A stretch of DNA of 64,000 nucleotides from IMG/VR virus record IMGVR_UViG_2724679570_000003, one strand, 5' to 3'. Source of the stretch: an uncultured virus (IMG/VR IMGVR_UViG_2724679570_000003). Lineage: Duplodnaviria > Heunggongvirae > Uroviricota > Caudoviricetes. The translations under genes were made by a program, and so were the position numbers. Below are positions 2,130 through 62,685 of this stretch, one piece after another. Position 1 is the stretch's first letter. Each line of letters begins with the position of its first letter. The notes beneath the pieces are model-generated. The model was not told the origin of the DNA and made no database searches. It worked only from the letters and a program-made list of their open reading frames with translations.

Positions 2130-2460
2130 CTTTTTGTACTATTTCTAATTTATTTATTCTACTTTCTTTAATTTCTCTTTGAATTATACCACTGTCAAAC
2201 ACCAAATTACCAATATAATTGGTATTTACACTCCAAATACATCCACTTTCTTTATGCCTATATTTTTGACCTTCTTCTATTTTTTTACCTCCTATAATAG
2301 CTGATAATACTTTTATACTAGTACAGGTTTGTATATTATCTTCAATTGTTCCAATGTTAAATTTATTATTTAAATAATATTCTTTAGCATTTTTGAAATT
2401 TCCATTAAATTTTGTTACTGTAAAATCTCCGTTTTGATAATTTATTTTTAATGTTAACAT
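2107..2460 (-). CDS. hypothetical early protein
   Basis: AAAGGGAGTTG RBS; sigmaA promoter upstream. Confidence 0.7.
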   Translation of the reverse strand: MLTLKINYQNGDFTVTKFNGNFKNAKEYYLNNKFNIGTIEDNIQTCTSIKVLSAIIGGKKIEEGQKYRHKESGCIWSVNTNYIGNLVFDSGIIQREIKESRINKLEIVQKGGNKNVC

Positions 2461-2535
2461 TTCTCAACAACTCCCTTTGTTTTATTAAATTATTTTGAAT
2501 TACTATGTAAGTTTTATTTCCTCCTGACACTTACT

Positions 2536-2564
2536 ATATTACATTATATTATATACAATGTCAA
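2536..2564 (-). promoter_or_regulatory. sigmaA-type promoter
   Basis: Minus strand TTGACA-17 bp-TAATAT. Confidence 0.65.
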
Positions 2565-2802
2565 CACATTTTATCAAATTATTTTTAATTTAAGAAAATC
2601 TTTTATTTCATCTATGAAAGCTTATTCTAAGCTATTGTAAACGACTTTGATTTTGTAGGTATCCATTACAATAATACATTTTAAATGTCTTCAAACCCTT
2701 TCTGATAAAGTAAGACAATATAAAAAAGCTGATATTACTCAGCTTTTGAAAATTATATTTTATCGAATTGAAGTTTTGTATCCTATATTGATTATTTTTA
2801 CA

Positions 2803-3114
2803 TTATAAATCACATTTGCTACATTCTTTTATATCACATATACTACATGGAATTATTTCTTTTCCACATATTGGGCATACCTGTTTTTTAAATCTGTTTA
2901 ATAAAGTTACCTCATATTCACATTCAGGGCATAATTCATAAGTGATTAAATCATTTATGATATAATCTACATCATCATATGTATAACTTTCTAAAAATTC
3001 GTCTAATGTCTTATTATAGTTATTAATCACTATAAATTCTAAAGTTTTAAAATCTACCTCATGTTTATTATTTTGACCTTCTAAAGTTATTTTGTTATTT
3101 TTCATTTTCAACAC
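2803..3114 (-). CDS. protein with C-terminal Cys-rich zinc ribbon
   Basis: CPEC...CPICG...CSIC...CSKC. Confidence 0.7.
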   Translation of the reverse strand: MLKMKNNKITLEGQNNKHEVDFKTLEFIVINNYNKTLDEFLESYTYDDVDYIINDLITYELCPECEYEVTLLNRFKKQVCPICGKEIIPCSICDIKECSKCDL

Positions 3115-3161: not shown

Positions 3162-3782
3162 TTAATTTAATTTGCTCCATTTTAAATTATTTTCTTTTGC
3201 ATATTTTATTAAACAATTAAACATATCTTTTTCTAAATCATATAAATCCACTTTATCATCTAATGGTTCATAATCACTATACCATTCCCCGTTACTACAA
3301 TAGTCTTCAGAACATTTATAAGAAACATAATAATCTAATGATTTTTTACCCTCGAAATTATCAATATTTAACTCTATACAAATATTCCCGAATTCTAAAT
3401 ATGCTATTACTTCCTTATCTTCAATTACATAATCATTAAAATATTTTTTTATATCTTCTATATATTTTGAATATTTATATATATTCATATCTTTAGCTTC
3501 TTCAAAGTTAATATTATATCCTACATATTCTTCTAAAGTTATTAAATCAGTATCGAATATTTTAATACCATTATCCATATCTTTTTTATGTTTTATTTGT
3601 TCAATAAATAAATTACAAACTTCTACTATAGAGGTTTTTTCTATAACATTGGATTCTAAACTTTTTAAGAATAACTTATTATCTTCAACAACTAATTGAT
3701 ACATGTAATCATATAGCCACCAATCTAATATATTTGACACTTTTTTATTTTCTATTATTTCATTACATTTTATATTTAACAT
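3162..3782 (-). CDS. acidic hypothetical protein
   Basis: 206-aa ORF with AGGGAGTTG RBS. Confidence 0.7.
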   Translation of the reverse strand: MLNIKCNEIIENKKVSNILDWWLYDYMYQLVVEDNKLFLKSLESNVIEKTSIVEVCNLFIEQIKHKKDMDNGIKIFDTDLITLEEYVGYNINFEEAKDMNIYKYSKYIEDIKKYFNDYVIEDKEVIAYLEFGNICIELNIDNFEGKKSLDYYVSYKCSEDYCSNGEWYSDYEPLDDKVDLYDLEKDMFNCLIKYAKENNLKWSKLN

Positions 3783-4851: not shown

Positions 4852-4889
4852 TTTTTTACCCTCCTAAAATTGTTTTAAAACCTACTTGG

Positions 4890-5150
4890 TTATGCAGTTA
4901 AGGTAATTTCGACATTTTCTTGCATGTGCATACTTGCAATATGATTAACTAACGAATCAGTAAATTCATACACAAGTCTTCTTCCTGCCTCATTGTCAGT
5001 AATATATACAGTCTTGTCCCATGCAGGCGATTTTTCAATTGATTGACCTGGCACATAATATTGTACATTGAAATATATCCTTTTCCCATCTATCCAAGGA
5101 ATAGACCTTATTTTGTACGAACCTATCCATTTATCTAATTCCATTTTCAT
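4890..5150 (-). CDS. hypothetical protein
   Basis: AAGGAGG RBS; somewhat higher GC than neighbours. Confidence 0.7.
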   Translation of the reverse strand: MKMELDKWIGSYKIRSIPWIDGKRIYFNVQYYVPGQSIEKSPAWDKTVYITDNEAGRRLVYEFTDSLVNHIASMHMQENVEITLTA

Positions 5151-40339: not shown

Positions 40340-40414
40340 ATGGGTTTAGTGTAATGTGTAGCACGACAGTCTCCAAAACTGTTAGTGAGGGTTCAAATCC
40401 CTCAGTCCATGCCA
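40340..40414 (+). tRNA. tRNA-Trp(CCA)
   Basis: Acceptor ATGGGTT/AGTCCAT, anticodon arm ACAGT-CTCCAAA-ACTGT, T arm GAGGG-TTCAAAT-CCCTC, encoded CCA. Confidence 0.92.
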
Positions 40415-59312: not shown

Positions 59313-59787
59313 TTTAAGAGATTTATATAAGTATGCAGAAAAAGCACATGAAGAAGTTGCTACAAATGAAACTCAAGAAGGGATTAAAGAAGTAGCAAGT
59401 GATGTTGTAGATGAAGAAGTTTATAGTAAATATGATAATAAAGATAGAAGAGGAAAGCATGGTGGTGGATTAGGAGATATTAAAAATATGGTAGTACATC
59501 CTCCTAAAAAAATAGGAAATACTATAGAAGTGAAAATTACAAATGAAACTCCTTTAGACCCACCTGATGATGGGATACCAAGGAATTATAGATTGGATGA
59601 AGCTATTGAATATGGTGGCGATTATTATGAATATCCTAAAAGTAAAAAAAATAGAGATGAAGGAACTTATACATATCTGAAACCTAGACCATTTAACAGA
59701 AAAACAGAGGAAAGATTAAATGTAACAAGAGAACATGAAAAAGCGTATAAAAACGCTATGAAAGCTAAGGGGATAGATATTAAATAA
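59272..59787 (+). CDS. HK97 gp10-like tail/neck protein
   Basis: IEYG...PRPF motif; probable start ATG 59299. Confidence 0.55.
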   Translation: MKKPQRIRKMDFNSLRDLYKYAEKAHEEVATNETQEGIKEVASDVVDEEVYSKYDNKDRRGKHGGGLGDIKNMVVHPPKKIGNTIEVKITNETPLDPPDDGIPRNYRLDEAIEYGGDYYEYPKSKKNRDEGTYTYLKPRPFNRKTEERLNVTREHEKAYKNAMKAKGIDIK

Positions 59788-59909
59788 ATTTCCCCTATTT
59801 TTCTTTAAGTATATAGATGTTTTAAAATATCAATTTTATTAAAATTTTAGAACCTTGTATGTTTAAAGAAGAATCTAATATAACATTGGTAAAATATAGA
59901 ATAAAATCC

Positions 59910-59938
59910 TTGACGTTTAATCAATTTTAAGTTACAAT
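59910..59938 (+). promoter_or_regulatory. sigmaA promoter for the pseudoknot-repeat RNA
   Basis: TTGACG-17 bp-TACAAT. Confidence 0.65.
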
Positions 59939-59952
59939 ATAGGTGTGACAAT

Positions 59953-60218
59953 ATTAAGGTTCATCAAACACGTTTCACAATGTACGACAAAGAAACATTG
60001 TTAATACAAGTACGCTTCATGATGTGCGACAAAGAAACATTATTGATGTATATGAAATAAATAATAAATAACCATAGGAACTGTGGGGTTAGCTTGGTAA
60101 ATTTACTTACAATAGTAGGTATTACCCAAGAATCACATAGCTAAAGCTACGCTACGTGAGGTTCAAACAAATACGCTTCACAATGTGCGATAAACAACAT
60201 TGTTTACTGAACCTTAAT
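59953..60218 (+). ncRNA. array of three ~42-nt pseudoknot repeats (type III antitoxin-like)
   Basis: Units at 59964-60005, 60006-60047 and 60167-~60207 with covarying stems; enclosed by ATTAAGGTTCA/TGAACCTTAAT. Confidence 0.65.
60048..60166 (+). mobile_element. non-autonomous IS200/IS605 derivative (stand-alone omegaRNA scaffold)
   Basis: Near copy of 62414-62512; starts right after TTGAT and ends GAGGTTCAA. Confidence 0.8.
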
Positions 60219-60252
60219 TTTAATAAGAAATTATTATAAGGAGGATTTTCAA

Positions 60253-60420
60253 ATGTCAACATCTTCTTTTAATAAGAAAATAATAATAGATAACAAATCA
60301 GCATCTAAATTAATATCAAAGATTAATTTAGATAGTATAAATGGAACAAATTTTAAAGAAATAGATGTGAGAAAAGAGCTAAAAGAGAGTGCAAAATCAT
60401 TAAAAGCACTATTATTTTAA
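60253..60420 (+). CDS. 55-aa protein, possible orphan antitoxin
   Basis: MSTSSFNKKIII...ALLF; GGAGG RBS. Confidence 0.55.
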   Translation: MSTSSFNKKIIIDNKSASKLISKINLDSINGTNFKEIDVRKELKESAKSLKALLF

Positions 60421-60628
60421 TAGAAAGATTATAATCAATAGTATATGAAATTATTTTCTAAGATTAGTGTGGTGTCTAATCTTATCAATACTCAGGAATA
60501 TACTGTATTAATATGAGTTAGTATGTACCTTCATTAGAGGGAATAATCTAATGCACACCGTTAATTGAATTGAACAATAAAATAATTTGTTAGAAAGATT
60601 TTTAAAATTTTCATAAATTCTATTAGGA

Positions 60629-60937
60629 GTGAAAAAGGTTATGAATATAGATAATAACACGTCTCTTAATTGTATTAAATATATTGAGGATGATGGAAGT
60701 GTAACACTTTCTTTAGAAAAATTTGATATTGTAGTAAATGCAAATAATTATAATGATGCTATTTCTGAAATAGTTAAGGAATTAAAAGATTATATTGACG
60801 ATTATATAGCTGAACCTGATTATTGGAGTACAGATAGTAGAAGAAAATCTCAAGTTCAATTTCTTTCAGAGCTGTTTAAAAATACGAAAGAAGACAAAAT
60901 AAAGGAAATCATAAAATGCCGAAGTGCAAAGAACTAA
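60629..60937 (+). CDS. HicB-like antitoxin
   Basis: beta-beta-beta-alpha pattern (DGSVTLSL..DIVVNA....AI......DY); overlaps the hicA-like frame. Confidence 0.6.
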   Translation: MKKVMNIDNNTSLNCIKYIEDDGSVTLSLEKFDIVVNANNYNDAISEIVKELKDYIDDYIAEPDYWSTDSRRKSQVQFLSELFKNTKEDKIKEIIKCRSAKN

Positions 60938-61134
60938 AAAGATTTTGTGATAGAGAAGGATGGGAGCTATATAAAGATACTAACCATTATTATTATAGAA
61001 AAAAAGATTCAAATGGGAATATAAGAAAAACTAAAGTATCACGAGGGTCTGGAGAAATCAAACATTAGTTATGGAGGCATATATTGAAAGACCAATTAGG
61101 TGTAACACAAGAATATTTTAATAGTATTATATAA
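60916..61134 (+). pseudogene. HicA-like toxin with in-frame TAG
   Basis: MPKCKELKRFCDREGW...TKVSRGSGEIKH*LWRHILKDQLG...; stop at 61066-61068. Confidence 0.7.
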
Positions 61135-61185
61135 AAACTTCTAATCAATAAAAGTTAGGAGTTTTTTATTTTGCAAAATAATATT

Positions 61186-61213
61186 TGACAAATATAAAAT
61201 AATTTGATAATAT
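61186..61213 (+). promoter_or_regulatory. phage-type sigmaA promoter driving tnpB
   Basis: TTGACA-aatataaaataatttga-TAATAT. Confidence 0.65.
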
Positions 61214-61240
61214 TGTTTTATATAAAGGTGGTGTTAATGA

Positions 61241-62395
61241 ATGACAATACAAAAAGGATTTAAATATAGAATATATCCTAATAAAACTCAAATAGAACAG
61301 ATAGAATTAAGTTTTAAAGCTAAAAGATATGTTTGGAATTATTTCTTGAATATTAATAAACATAGACTTCAACATCATAAAAATATATTAAACTATACTA
61401 AAATGTCAAGATTATTAACACTGCTTAAAAAGAAAAATATATGGCTTAAACAATGTGAAAAATCTGTATTGCAAAATACTTTAAAATTTCAATATGAAAC
61501 ATTTTTAAAATTCTTTAAAAAAGAATGTGGATTTCCTAAGTTTAAATCATATAAAAATAATTATCAATCTATTAAAATAAATTTTACAAACAATAATATA
61601 GAGATATTAGAAAAAGAAATAAGATATACATCTACAGGTAAATATAAAAAACAAAATTGTAAAATTAAATTACCTAAATTAAAACAAATTAGAATAGCTT
61701 ATTCAAGACAGTATCAAGGCAGAATAGTATCATCTACTTTATCAAGAGATACGAATGGTAAATATTATATCAGTTTATGCTGTGTAGATGTACCACAAGA
61801 AAATAAAGAGAAAACAGGTTTAGTAGTTGGAATAGATTTAGGCATTAAAGAATTTGCAACTACAAGTGATAATAAAATTATTTCTAATCCTAAATATTAT
61901 AGAAAATATGAAGATAAATTAATAAAAGCTCAAAGAAAACTTAGTAAACGTAAAAAAGGTAGTAATAATAGAAATAAACAAAGATTGAAAGTAAATAAAT
62001 ATCATAAGAAAATATGTAATTGTAGGATAGATTTTCTTCAGAAACTAACTACAGATTTTATTAATAAATATGATATTATTTGTTTAGAAGATTTAAATGT
62101 TAGTGGTATGTTACAAAATCATAAATTAGCTAAAAGCATAGCAGATGCAAGTTTCTTTGAGTTCAATAGAGAGTTAGAATATAAATCTAAATGGTATGAT
62201 AAAACAACATCTAAAATAGATAGATTTTATCCTAGTAGTCAATTATGTAGTAATTGTGACAATCAATCACAACAAACTAAAGATTTAGGAGTTAGGACTT
62301 ATATATGTCCAAAATGTGGGTTAGAAATAGATAGAGATTATAATGCTAGTATAAATATTTTAAATGAAGGTTTAAGATTATTGAAAGCAAGTTAA
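61241..62395 (+). CDS. tnpB: IS200/IS605-family RNA-guided nuclease TnpB
   Basis: FKYRIYP N-terminus; RuvC GIDLG / LEDL / DRDYNAS all intact; CxxC..CPxC Zn finger. Confidence 0.95.
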   Translation: MTIQKGFKYRIYPNKTQIEQIELSFKAKRYVWNYFLNINKHRLQHHKNILNYTKMSRLLTLLKKKNIWLKQCEKSVLQNTLKFQYETFLKFFKKECGFPKFKSYKNNYQSIKINFTNNNIEILEKEIRYTSTGKYKKQNCKIKLPKLKQIRIAYSRQYQGRIVSSTLSRDTNGKYYISLCCVDVPQENKEKTGLVVGIDLGIKEFATTSDNKIISNPKYYRKYEDKLIKAQRKLSKRKKGSNNRNKQRLKVNKYHKKICNCRIDFLQKLTTDFINKYDIICLEDLNVSGMLQNHKLAKSIADASFFEFNRELEYKSKWYDKTTSKIDRFYPSSQLCSNCDNQSQQTKDLGVRTYICPKCGLEIDRDYNASINILNEGLRLLKAS

Positions 62396-62413
62396 AAATA
62401 ATTTAAATATATA

Positions 62414-62530
62414 AATAAATAACCATAGGAACTATGGAGATAGCTTGGTAAATTTACTTACAATAATAGGTATTACCCAAGAATCCCGGGACTTTTGTCG
62501 TGGGAGGTTCAAAATATTGCCAACCTAGAA
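62414..62530 (+). ncRNA. TnpB omegaRNA scaffold, right end and guide
   Basis: Right-end hairpin CCCGGGAC-TTTT-GTCGTGGG then AGGTTCAA; guide begins at 62513. Confidence 0.75.
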
Positions 62531-62594
62531 AAAGTTTTTATATATCTTGTATATTATAAAATTATTTTATATTTGTCAATATTTTTTATACTAC

Positions 62595-62620
62595 TTACTC
62601 ACGACTGAAGTCACGAGTAT
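62595..62620 (-). mobile_element. IS200/IS605-type end hairpin remnant, inverted
   Basis: Minus strand ACTCGTGAC-TTCA-GTCGTGAGT resembles the right-end hairpin. Confidence 0.5.
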
Positions 62621-62685
62621 GCGTGGTGCTTTTATAATCAATTTGTTATAATATATACATATATTAAAATTATATATGGAATTAT

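Follow-up and report, generated by a model that had tools for sequence, protein, structure and literature searches.

The RNA repeats at positions 59910-60218 of the uncultured virus record IMGVR_UViG_2724679570_000003, analyzed here as a stretch of 64,000 nucleotides (hereafter the window), are homologous to arrays that stand directly upstream of CptN-like toxin genes in type III toxin-antitoxin loci. We consider it somewhat probable that the array in the window is an orphaned antitoxin left by the loss of its toxin, which is probably still transcribed and would retain a residual capacity to neutralize a cognate CptN in trans. The window is a 64 kb piece of a large AT-rich phage-like element, in which PHROGs matches identify portal and virion proteins as well as ParB-like, tubulin-like and FtsK-like proteins. 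The closest named relatives of the region are Clostridium botulinum plasmids of ~200 kb, and the elements of its relatives are likewise ~200 kb long.

The array and its immediate surroundings comprise the following features, in which S1 and S2 denote the two helices of a unit, a and b their 5' and 3' strands, and L1 and L3 the loops. The closest relative of the locus, L031, serves as the sister locus throughout.

59910-59938, + strand: sigma-70-type promoter TTGACG-17-TACAAT predicted to drive the array, 10/12 consensus matches, same hexamers in the sister locus L031
59959-60001, + strand: unit 1, linker and CptI-type pseudoknot, S1 CGU/ACG, L1 UUC, S2 ACAAUGU/ACAUUGU, L3 ACAAAGAA
Parts of unit 1, + strand: S1a 59971-59973, L1 59974-59976, S2a 59977-59983, S1b 59984-59986, L3 59987-59994, S2b 59995-60001
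60002-60043, + strand: unit 2 pseudoknot (S1a 60013-60015 to S2b 60037-60043), S1 CGC/GCG, S2 AUGAUGU/ACAUUAU
60048-60167, + strand: solo right end of an IS200/IS605 element, omega-RNA scaffold-like, in the linker between units 2 and 3, between TGAT and ACAAAUACGC
60162-60203, + strand: unit 3 pseudoknot (S1a 60174-60176 to S2b 60197-60203), S1 CGC/GCG, S2 ACAAUGU/ACAUUGU, L3 AUAAACA
60204-60228, + strand: 25-nt stretch in place of a 571-nt block of the sisters (hairpin, ribosome-binding site, toxin gene), holding the 3' arm 60208-60218 of an inverted repeat
60253-60420, + strand: open reading frame (ORF) of 55 aa directly behind the array, with an AAGGAGG ribosome-binding site at 60239-60245

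The original prediction, made from the letters of the window, had described a promoter followed by three ~42-nt units with compensatory stem differences, closed by an 11-bp inverted repeat. The promoter was located as listed above, and all three units parse as S1a-L1-S2a-S1b-L3-S2b, just as predicted. They do not, however, stand in tandem: units 1 and 2 are spaced by 42 nt, whereas unit 3 follows unit 2 at 161 nt, displaced by a 120-nt insert. The cptIN loci described in the available text of PMC3401426 have repeats of 40-48 nt in 1.9-3.4 copies. The arrangement of the CptI type, in which a promoter precedes ~2-3 direct repeats of 40-48 nt each, is present here as a 42-nt period with two tandem units and one displaced. 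The pattern of a unit had two exact matches in the window compared to 0.00 expected from 100 shuffles. As predicted, the stems differ by compensatory changes, S1 varying between U-A and C-G, while in S2 a C-G pair gives way to U-A, accompanied by a G-U wobble. Each unit keeps 10/10 stem pairs, with a single G-U among the three units, which lies in S2 of unit 2 next to one compensatory pair. The perfect 11-bp inverted repeat (59953-59963 / 60208-60218) is real, lies inside a 21-nt pair of 86% complementarity and is used in the minimum-free-energy fold; it does not clearly serve to close the array, the 3' arm sitting in the 25 nt that replace the hairpin and toxin of the sisters.

The array matches the Rfam family RF02920 ('Fusobacteriales-1') at 59925-60043 with 68.4 bits (gathering score 52.1), and RF02920 and a tRNA were the only families that reached the Rfam cut-off in the window. 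A second match to the family, covering unit 3 alone (60124-60203), stayed under the cut-off with 31.8 bits. RF02920 consists of three consecutive 7-bp hairpins, each standing after ACGYUUC; the window has two consecutive hairpins and the third 161 nt past unit 2, behind the insert derived from the insertion sequence (IS), while the first hairpin of the model aligns to the promoter region with non-pairs. The family derives from Weinberg et al. 2017 (PMC5737381). In Rfam it is typed 'Cis-reg' and its structure line shows three hairpins without a pseudoknot, to which the units described here add the 3-bp pseudoknot helix S1. The name 'Fusobacteriales-1' occurred in none of the main texts searched; the supplement of the defining paper lay outside this search, and its authors may already have noted the link to a toxin. 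Neither an RF02920-type RNA nor the toxin is found in the record nearest to the window (G001), which is 20% complete. In a phage collection, the 'near' mode gave no match to the array, and in the 'distant' mode two Clostridioides phages matched units 1 and 2.

A covariance model (R1) trained solely on units upstream of bacterial toxin genes was used to scan both strands of the window. It found precisely three sites, unit 3 with 52.3 bits (E 1.5e-10), unit 1 with 50.6 bits (E 4e-10) and unit 2 with 37.6 bits (E 5.8e-7), and the next best match scored 15.2 bits (E 0.17). Covariation was assessed on 150 distinct units (the first 150 of 160), which had been chosen via the toxin and S2 regardless of S1 and include two spurious rows. 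In this set, 99.6% of the cells are in standard pairs, and changes on both sides are seen for 3/3 S1 pairs (26, 42 and 61 sequences) and 5/7 S2 pairs. The observed covariation score was reached by none of 500 shuffles, and slid controls pair in 15-60%. A set of 43 viral units together with those of the window gave the same picture of pairing and covariation. Judged by the covariation of both helices, each repeat is an H-type pseudoknot.

Each S2 is at the same time an inverted repeat in the DNA (palindromes of the kind ACAATGT-N11-ACATTGT), and the units lie just downstream of a promoter, so that they might be read as operators for a dimeric regulator rather than as RNA. We find this hardly credible. 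The G-U pairs of unit 2 and its homologues fit an RNA of the + strand only, and compensatory change occurs in S2 and also in S1, which is not an arm of the palindrome. The units moreover keep a fixed orientation and a constant position upstream of the toxin gene, for whose protein family a solved complex of CptN with CptI exists (according to the available text of PMC4627078). Given the G-U pairs and the fixed strand, DNA operators are effectively excluded.

The partner of such arrays was found from both directions. A scan of viral contigs with the unit pattern yielded at least 119 loci, and the viral counts given here refer to the loci listed. One group (L044, L036, L006, L020, L041, L050, L007) lay inside a conserved coding gene and two others (L004 and L027) lacked S1 pairing; they were removed from the counts of true units. 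Among the 39 listed viral loci with at least two adjacent units, 25 of which are near-identical copies of one array type, an ORF resembling P0001, the putative toxin of L031, starts 45-76 nt downstream on the same strand in 38. The sole exception is L022, with a gene for a PBECR4-type nuclease in the place of the toxin. Its three-unit array (minus strand, 2143-3084; RF02920 82.4 bits; no CptN) is followed by ~175 nt with a hairpin, then by the PBECR4-family gene (Pfam PF18813, E 1.8e-11) and a small Omega/HicB-like gene, which means that either the cassette behind the array was swapped or the array has another toxin as its partner. In six other contigs (L003, L012, L018, L040, L056, L065; oriented about 2330-2820), a second CptN-like ORF of 29-31% identity stands just upstream of the array, which suggests two type III loci in tandem.

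The reverse search, a scan of bacterial sequences with a toxin profile, gave 109 relatives, of which 80 were kept (L125-L204) and 78 had at least 100 nt of upstream DNA. Within 330 nt upstream of the toxin, at least one unit was present in 76 of these 78 loci, at least two in 67 and at least three in 53. The RF02920 cut-off was reached by 19 of 20 toxin-anchored loci tested; in L156 the match sits downstream of the toxin. Fusobacterium loci match RF02920 at about 127 bits, and in Fusobacterium vincentii ATCC 49256 (L159) a toxin of the P0001 type follows three such units. One cptIN locus of this strain is listed in Blower et al. 2012 (available text of PMC3401426). Across the toxin-linked arrays, the units inside one array are mostly non-identical.

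P0001 is the 174-aa ORF of L031 (L031:2430-2954:-), and the toxins of the sister elements measure 174-175 aa. It matches CptN of Eubacterium rectale, whose CptIN complex is PDB 4RMO (available text of PMC4627078), with E 1.1e-7 against 4RMO_A, and with E 1.9e-9 over positions 1-138 when a 34-sequence profile is used. The NCBIfam CptIN model is hit with E 2.7e-15 and 56.5 bits, under its cut-off of 90, and Pfam and PADLOC gave no match to P0001. The fold closest to the predicted model of P0001 (pLDDT 90.5) is that of 4RMO_A (E 5.5e-10, TM 0.73/0.82), and MazF-type toxins come next. P0001 has 731 homologues, and every named one is labelled hypothetical.

As units precede a toxin that was found independently of them, and the toxin follows units in the viral loci, RF02920 is, on this sequence evidence, the CptI-type antitoxin array of a large subfamily of CptN-like toxins. 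The original prediction of pseudoknot repeats of the type III antitoxin kind is thereby backed by the RF02920 match, by the covariation of both helices and by homologous arrays directly upstream of CptN-like genes. The checks it had proposed, a comparison with RNA family models and a search for like repeats beside toxins, returned RF02920 in the one case and repeats upstream of CptN-like genes in the other. A family filed as a cis-regulator of unknown role would thus become the antitoxin of a widespread, poorly annotated CptN subfamily.

Known cptIN loci share with the loci described here a promoter, tandem H-type pseudoknots with an A-rich loop, a terminator and a CptN endoribonuclease of ~150-175 aa (according to the available text of PMC3401426 and PMC4627078), and the sister toxin P0001 is a homologue of CptN in sequence and fold. 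The window differs in that it is without a toxin, holds only part of the hairpin region and has no terminator called. Further differences concern the repeats themselves, whose sequence is unrelated to the 45-nt CptI of E. rectale as given in the available text of PMC4627078. The units are also usually non-identical, whereas toxI and cptI repeats are described as mostly perfect in the text available from PMC12283969. Finally, all cptIN loci reported in 2012 were chromosomal, as far as the available text of PMC3401426 states, whereas those considered here lie on phage-like plasmids and viral contigs. Units that are non-identical yet structurally equivalent bear on how type III toxins recognize their antitoxin.

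A comparison with sister elements points to the event that left the array alone. L031 is 92.7% identical to the window up to 60047, with the final ~105 nt ahead of unit 1 being identical, and the alignment resumes at 60433. In the sister, the same promoter is followed by three 42-nt repeats that are perfect, then by a hairpin plus T-run and by the toxin gene. Its last unit ends at oriented position 3112 and the toxin ORF, including the stop codon, at 3683, a distance of 571 nt. Contigs of three runs (X1, X6, X7) join the unit end at 60002 to 60229 with 571 intervening letters, where the window has 25. In a further contig (X2), the 30 letters ahead of 60229 translate to EQVAVTKE, the C-terminus of P0001. 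The toxin thus occupies the position downstream of the array in L031, L025 and L123 and in the X1, X6 and X7 contigs, and because these relatives carry 571 letters where the window has 25, the window is without the block of hairpin and toxin. GAACCT recurs in the 25 nt and in the 5' arm of the L031 hairpin (by eye), so that this stretch may be what remains of that hairpin. The leader of the window holds AAGGUUCA, which is complementary to the 5' arm (GAACCU) of the sisters' hairpin ahead of the toxin; a competition of leader and terminator that tunes read-through into the toxin gene is conceivable from this complementarity.

The toxin itself was not found elsewhere in the window. A tblastn search with the sister toxin gave a best E of 0.11 over 23 residues, and the type III toxin models of NCBIfam matched none of the 63 window ORFs, in agreement with the original prediction that no CptN-like ORF follows the array. 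Its proposal of a phage-encoded mimic did not hold in this form: the array did not originate as a mimic in a phage but is a genuine cptIN antitoxin array, and sisters keep 571 nt of hairpin and toxin where 25 nt are present here. The ORF of 55 aa that now follows the array is the toxin's normal downstream neighbor in the sister elements, judging from its relatives. It has 7 matches, six of them relatives of 75-89% identity, and all named sources are C. botulinum or Clostridium sporogenes contigs of ~150-210 kb; in two relatives, the homologue of this ORF and the toxin have adjacent protein accession numbers. No family was found for it in PHROGs, Pfam, PADLOC or NCBIfam and no relative in viral contigs or plasmids. 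We had also considered 60048-60432, including this ORF, as a cassette swapped in for the toxin, and rejected the idea, since the ORF is the usual neighbor of the toxin in sister contigs. A comparison of the DNA of 60205-60450 with 401 genomes from a single family, of which 384 were scored and 17 were not, gave short AT-rich matches of at most 51 bits in 140 genomes, and these were taken as chance. Among further relatives, L121 has the promoter and neither array nor toxin, and L122 is wholly different.

Loss of the toxin is the usual first step in the decay of toxin-antitoxin loci. In the reading we prefer, the toxin would have been deleted in the lineage of the window and the array would remain as an orphan. 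As neither the promoter nor any of the three pseudoknots is damaged and the array is followed by no terminator (no terminator-like site was called on the + strand in 59500-61300), its RNA is probably still made, now at the 5' end of the message for the 55-aa ORF. It would be harmless and unprocessed without a toxin. Were a cognate CptN to arrive in trans, whether from a sister phage-plasmid or from the host, the units would be cut out and bind the toxin, and immunity would be a by-product. No evidence was found in the sequences for trans-immunity as a selected trait of the array. The surroundings have the look of decay: a hicA-like gene further downstream carries an in-frame stop, L121 lacks array and toxin, and an IS right end has inserted into the array. 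What seemed a puzzle in the window would then have an ordinary explanation, namely the loss of the toxin from a type III locus.

Several observations weigh against the orphan reading. Compared with L031, units 1 and 2 have 8 substitutions in 84 nt; 5 of these lie in stems, all five being transitions, and 20/20 stem pairs are kept. In a simulation with five random stem substitutions, 197 of 200,000 trials left every pair intact; when only transitions were allowed, the number rose to 11,678 of 200,000, or 0.06. The structure-keeping changes could reflect continued selection on the fold, which would favor a decoy. They may, on the other hand, predate the loss of the toxin, because most toxin-linked arrays also have non-identical units. 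Toxin-less units occur in other viral records as well. IS insertion, deletion and unit divergence may have come in any order, the expression of the array is a prediction, and the 9-bp hairpin with T-run of L031 was read by eye, the terminator scan of L031 having called none.

If selection has acted, the array might be a retained decoy or anti-addiction RNA, kept expressed in order to neutralize the CptN of sister phage-plasmids or of the host. By analogy with pseudo-ToxI in phage phiTE, it would protect from post-segregational killing or abortive infection. We lean against this scenario while regarding it as possible. The window and its toxin-bearing sister have identical promoters, the three pseudoknots are intact and score like toxin-linked units, and every stem substitution preserves the structure; the value of about 0.06 for transitions only, and the chance that the changes are older than the toxin loss, blunt the last of these points. 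Between unit 1 and its counterpart in the sister, one compensatory S1 pair and one linker base are the only differences, so that unit 1 is plausibly cognate to the sister toxin. Toxins 97-100% identical to P0001 exist in related C. botulinum and C. sporogenes elements, which makes encounters with the window element plausible. Solitary high-scoring units without a P0001-like gene are present in other viral records, but these are mostly incomplete (17-74%), so that the absence of a toxin from them carries little weight. General decay is suggested by the interrupted hicA-like gene, which weakens the decoy function that the original prediction had put forward, and by the piece of an IS in the linker, and the sister with neither array nor toxin shows that the locus can be dispensed with.

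The precedent for a decoy is the pseudo-ToxI of the Pectobacterium phage phiTE, which neutralizes the toxin in trans (according to the available text of PMC3475682). Both are toxin-less repeats that resemble a type III antitoxin, carried by a phage in the one case and, toxin-less within the 64 kb window, by a phage-like element in the other. The differences are that pseudo-ToxI is a phage sequence that mimics host ToxI and has been shown to work, whereas the window array is a true homologue orphaned by the deletion of its own toxin, belongs to cptIN instead of toxIN and is known from sequence alone (PMC3475682, as far as available).

A second parallel comes from type II systems. Their orphan antitoxins and anti-addiction modules retain an antitoxin whose own toxin is gone, which can give protection from the toxin of a mobile element that arrives or is lost. 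Those modules are proteins, whereas the window antitoxin is an RNA array that would need a foreign toxin for its processing. If it were true that the orphan array protects its carrier from the toxin of sisters, it would represent an anti-addiction module made of RNA that acts between competing phage-plasmids.

Toxin-less units outside the window have a bearing on the same question. The highest scores were 55.4 bits for L001/L017, 52.3 bits for L023 (a provirus rated 100% complete), 43.6 bits for L033 and 41.8 bits for L115, and weaker solitary units (L072, L063, L015) scored 22-27 bits. No P0001-like gene was found in the records of solitary units, most of which are incomplete (G010 served as positive control). 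Four groups of solitary CptI-like units lie upstream of tRNA genes on the same strand:

L001/L017, 3001-3043, - strand: solitary CptI-like unit
L063, 2999-3029, + strand: solitary CptI-like unit
L072, 3001-3040, - strand: solitary CptI-like unit
L015, 3001-3040, - strand: solitary CptI-like unit

All four groups stand on viral contigs in which no P0001-like gene was found; S1 is intact (CGC/GCG, GGU/ACC, GGC/GCC) and the flanks resemble the linker. In L063, the tRNA is directly preceded by a second unit, the stems of which differ (UGG/CCA and CCUACU/AGUAGG, by eye). The element of the window carries a tRNA-Trp gene (anticodon CCA) at 40340-40414. One might go further and propose that phages and phage-plasmids have repeatedly turned to toxin-less CptI units against CptIN, with the window array disarming the CptN of its sisters, the tRNA-linked units playing the same trick in lytic or other phages, and the omega-RNA-like insert adding an RNA-guided attack on sister arrays; this is speculative, and we judge it unlikely. 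Natural toxin-less arrays and single units in phage-like elements are raw material for escape by antitoxin decoys, a route that rests so far on one experimental phage.

The insert between units 2 and 3 raises the question of yet another RNA role. Its core (60063-60134, 72 nt) is 94% identical to 62414-62485, which directly follows the stop codon of a TnpB gene in the window, and a related sequence follows a TnpB gene in Fusobacterium vincentii. The insert is not continuous with the 3' end of any tnpB, i.e., it is a solo copy. Two stems are common to the three right-end copies, as is a third hairpin, in which compensatory changes are seen. L031 lacks the insert; the linker of its array is uninterrupted and reads TTGAT-ACAAATACGC. 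Its 3' neighbor, the would-be guide, is the array linker, and an intact-looking TnpB lies 1 kb downstream.

On these grounds, array and solo right end together might form an orphan omega-RNA with the linker ACAAAUACGCUUCAC... as would-be guide, through which the TnpB 1 kb downstream could cut the uninterrupted arrays of sisters; alternatively, the array might act as a 5' leader that regulates the 55-aa ORF. Another RNA role of either kind appears quite improbable to us. The solo right end does keep the conserved stems that follow TnpB, ends ...GAGGUUCAA like the full copy and abuts the linker, an intact-looking TnpB is present, and the sister linker reads TTGAT-ACAAATACGC without interruption; TTGAT is the target-adjacent motif of TnpB in ISDra2 and a mere candidate for that of the window TnpB. 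The scaffold, however, is reduced to about 105 nt and lacks the part that overlaps the 3' coding end of tnpB, and an inverted flanking segment blurs the boundaries of the full IS. As for the leader, no terminator-like site was called on the + strand from unit 3 to the 55-aa ORF, which has a strong ribosome-binding site, but in the sisters this ORF sits behind the toxin and not the array, so that such a role would be new and accidental. The orphaned antitoxin remains our preferred reading of the array.

Downstream of the 55-aa ORF, the window continues with a type II pair and the TnpB element:

60629-60937, + strand: PHD-like type II antitoxin gene, open (Pfam PF12910, E 4.4e-11, 43.4 bits, cut-off 27)
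60916-61134, + strand: hicA-like type II toxin gene with an in-frame stop at 61066-61068, 50/72 codons remaining
61241-62395, + strand: TnpB (RNA-guided endonuclease) of an IS200/IS605 element (NCBIfam NF040570 322.5 bits, cut-off 100; NF038281 415.5 bits; Pfam OrfB_IS605)
62414-62508, + strand: right end of the TnpB element, the source type of the solo copy by sequence likeness

A 72-aa homologue from L031 covers 60916-61131 of the window at 74% identity in tblastn, the translation showing the stop, and L121 has a homologue whose annotation reads HicA family toxin. The region is thus a small toxin-antitoxin island in which both toxins are, from their reading frames, missing or broken. The TnpB element (window 61214-62632) is absent from L031 (oriented 4860-4910). 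About 38 nt past its right end are the reverse complement of the empty-site sequence of L031, and window 62550-62590 resembles the reverse complement of the sequence ahead of the element, which points to an inverted duplication or an inversion that would have accompanied the insertion of the TnpB element.

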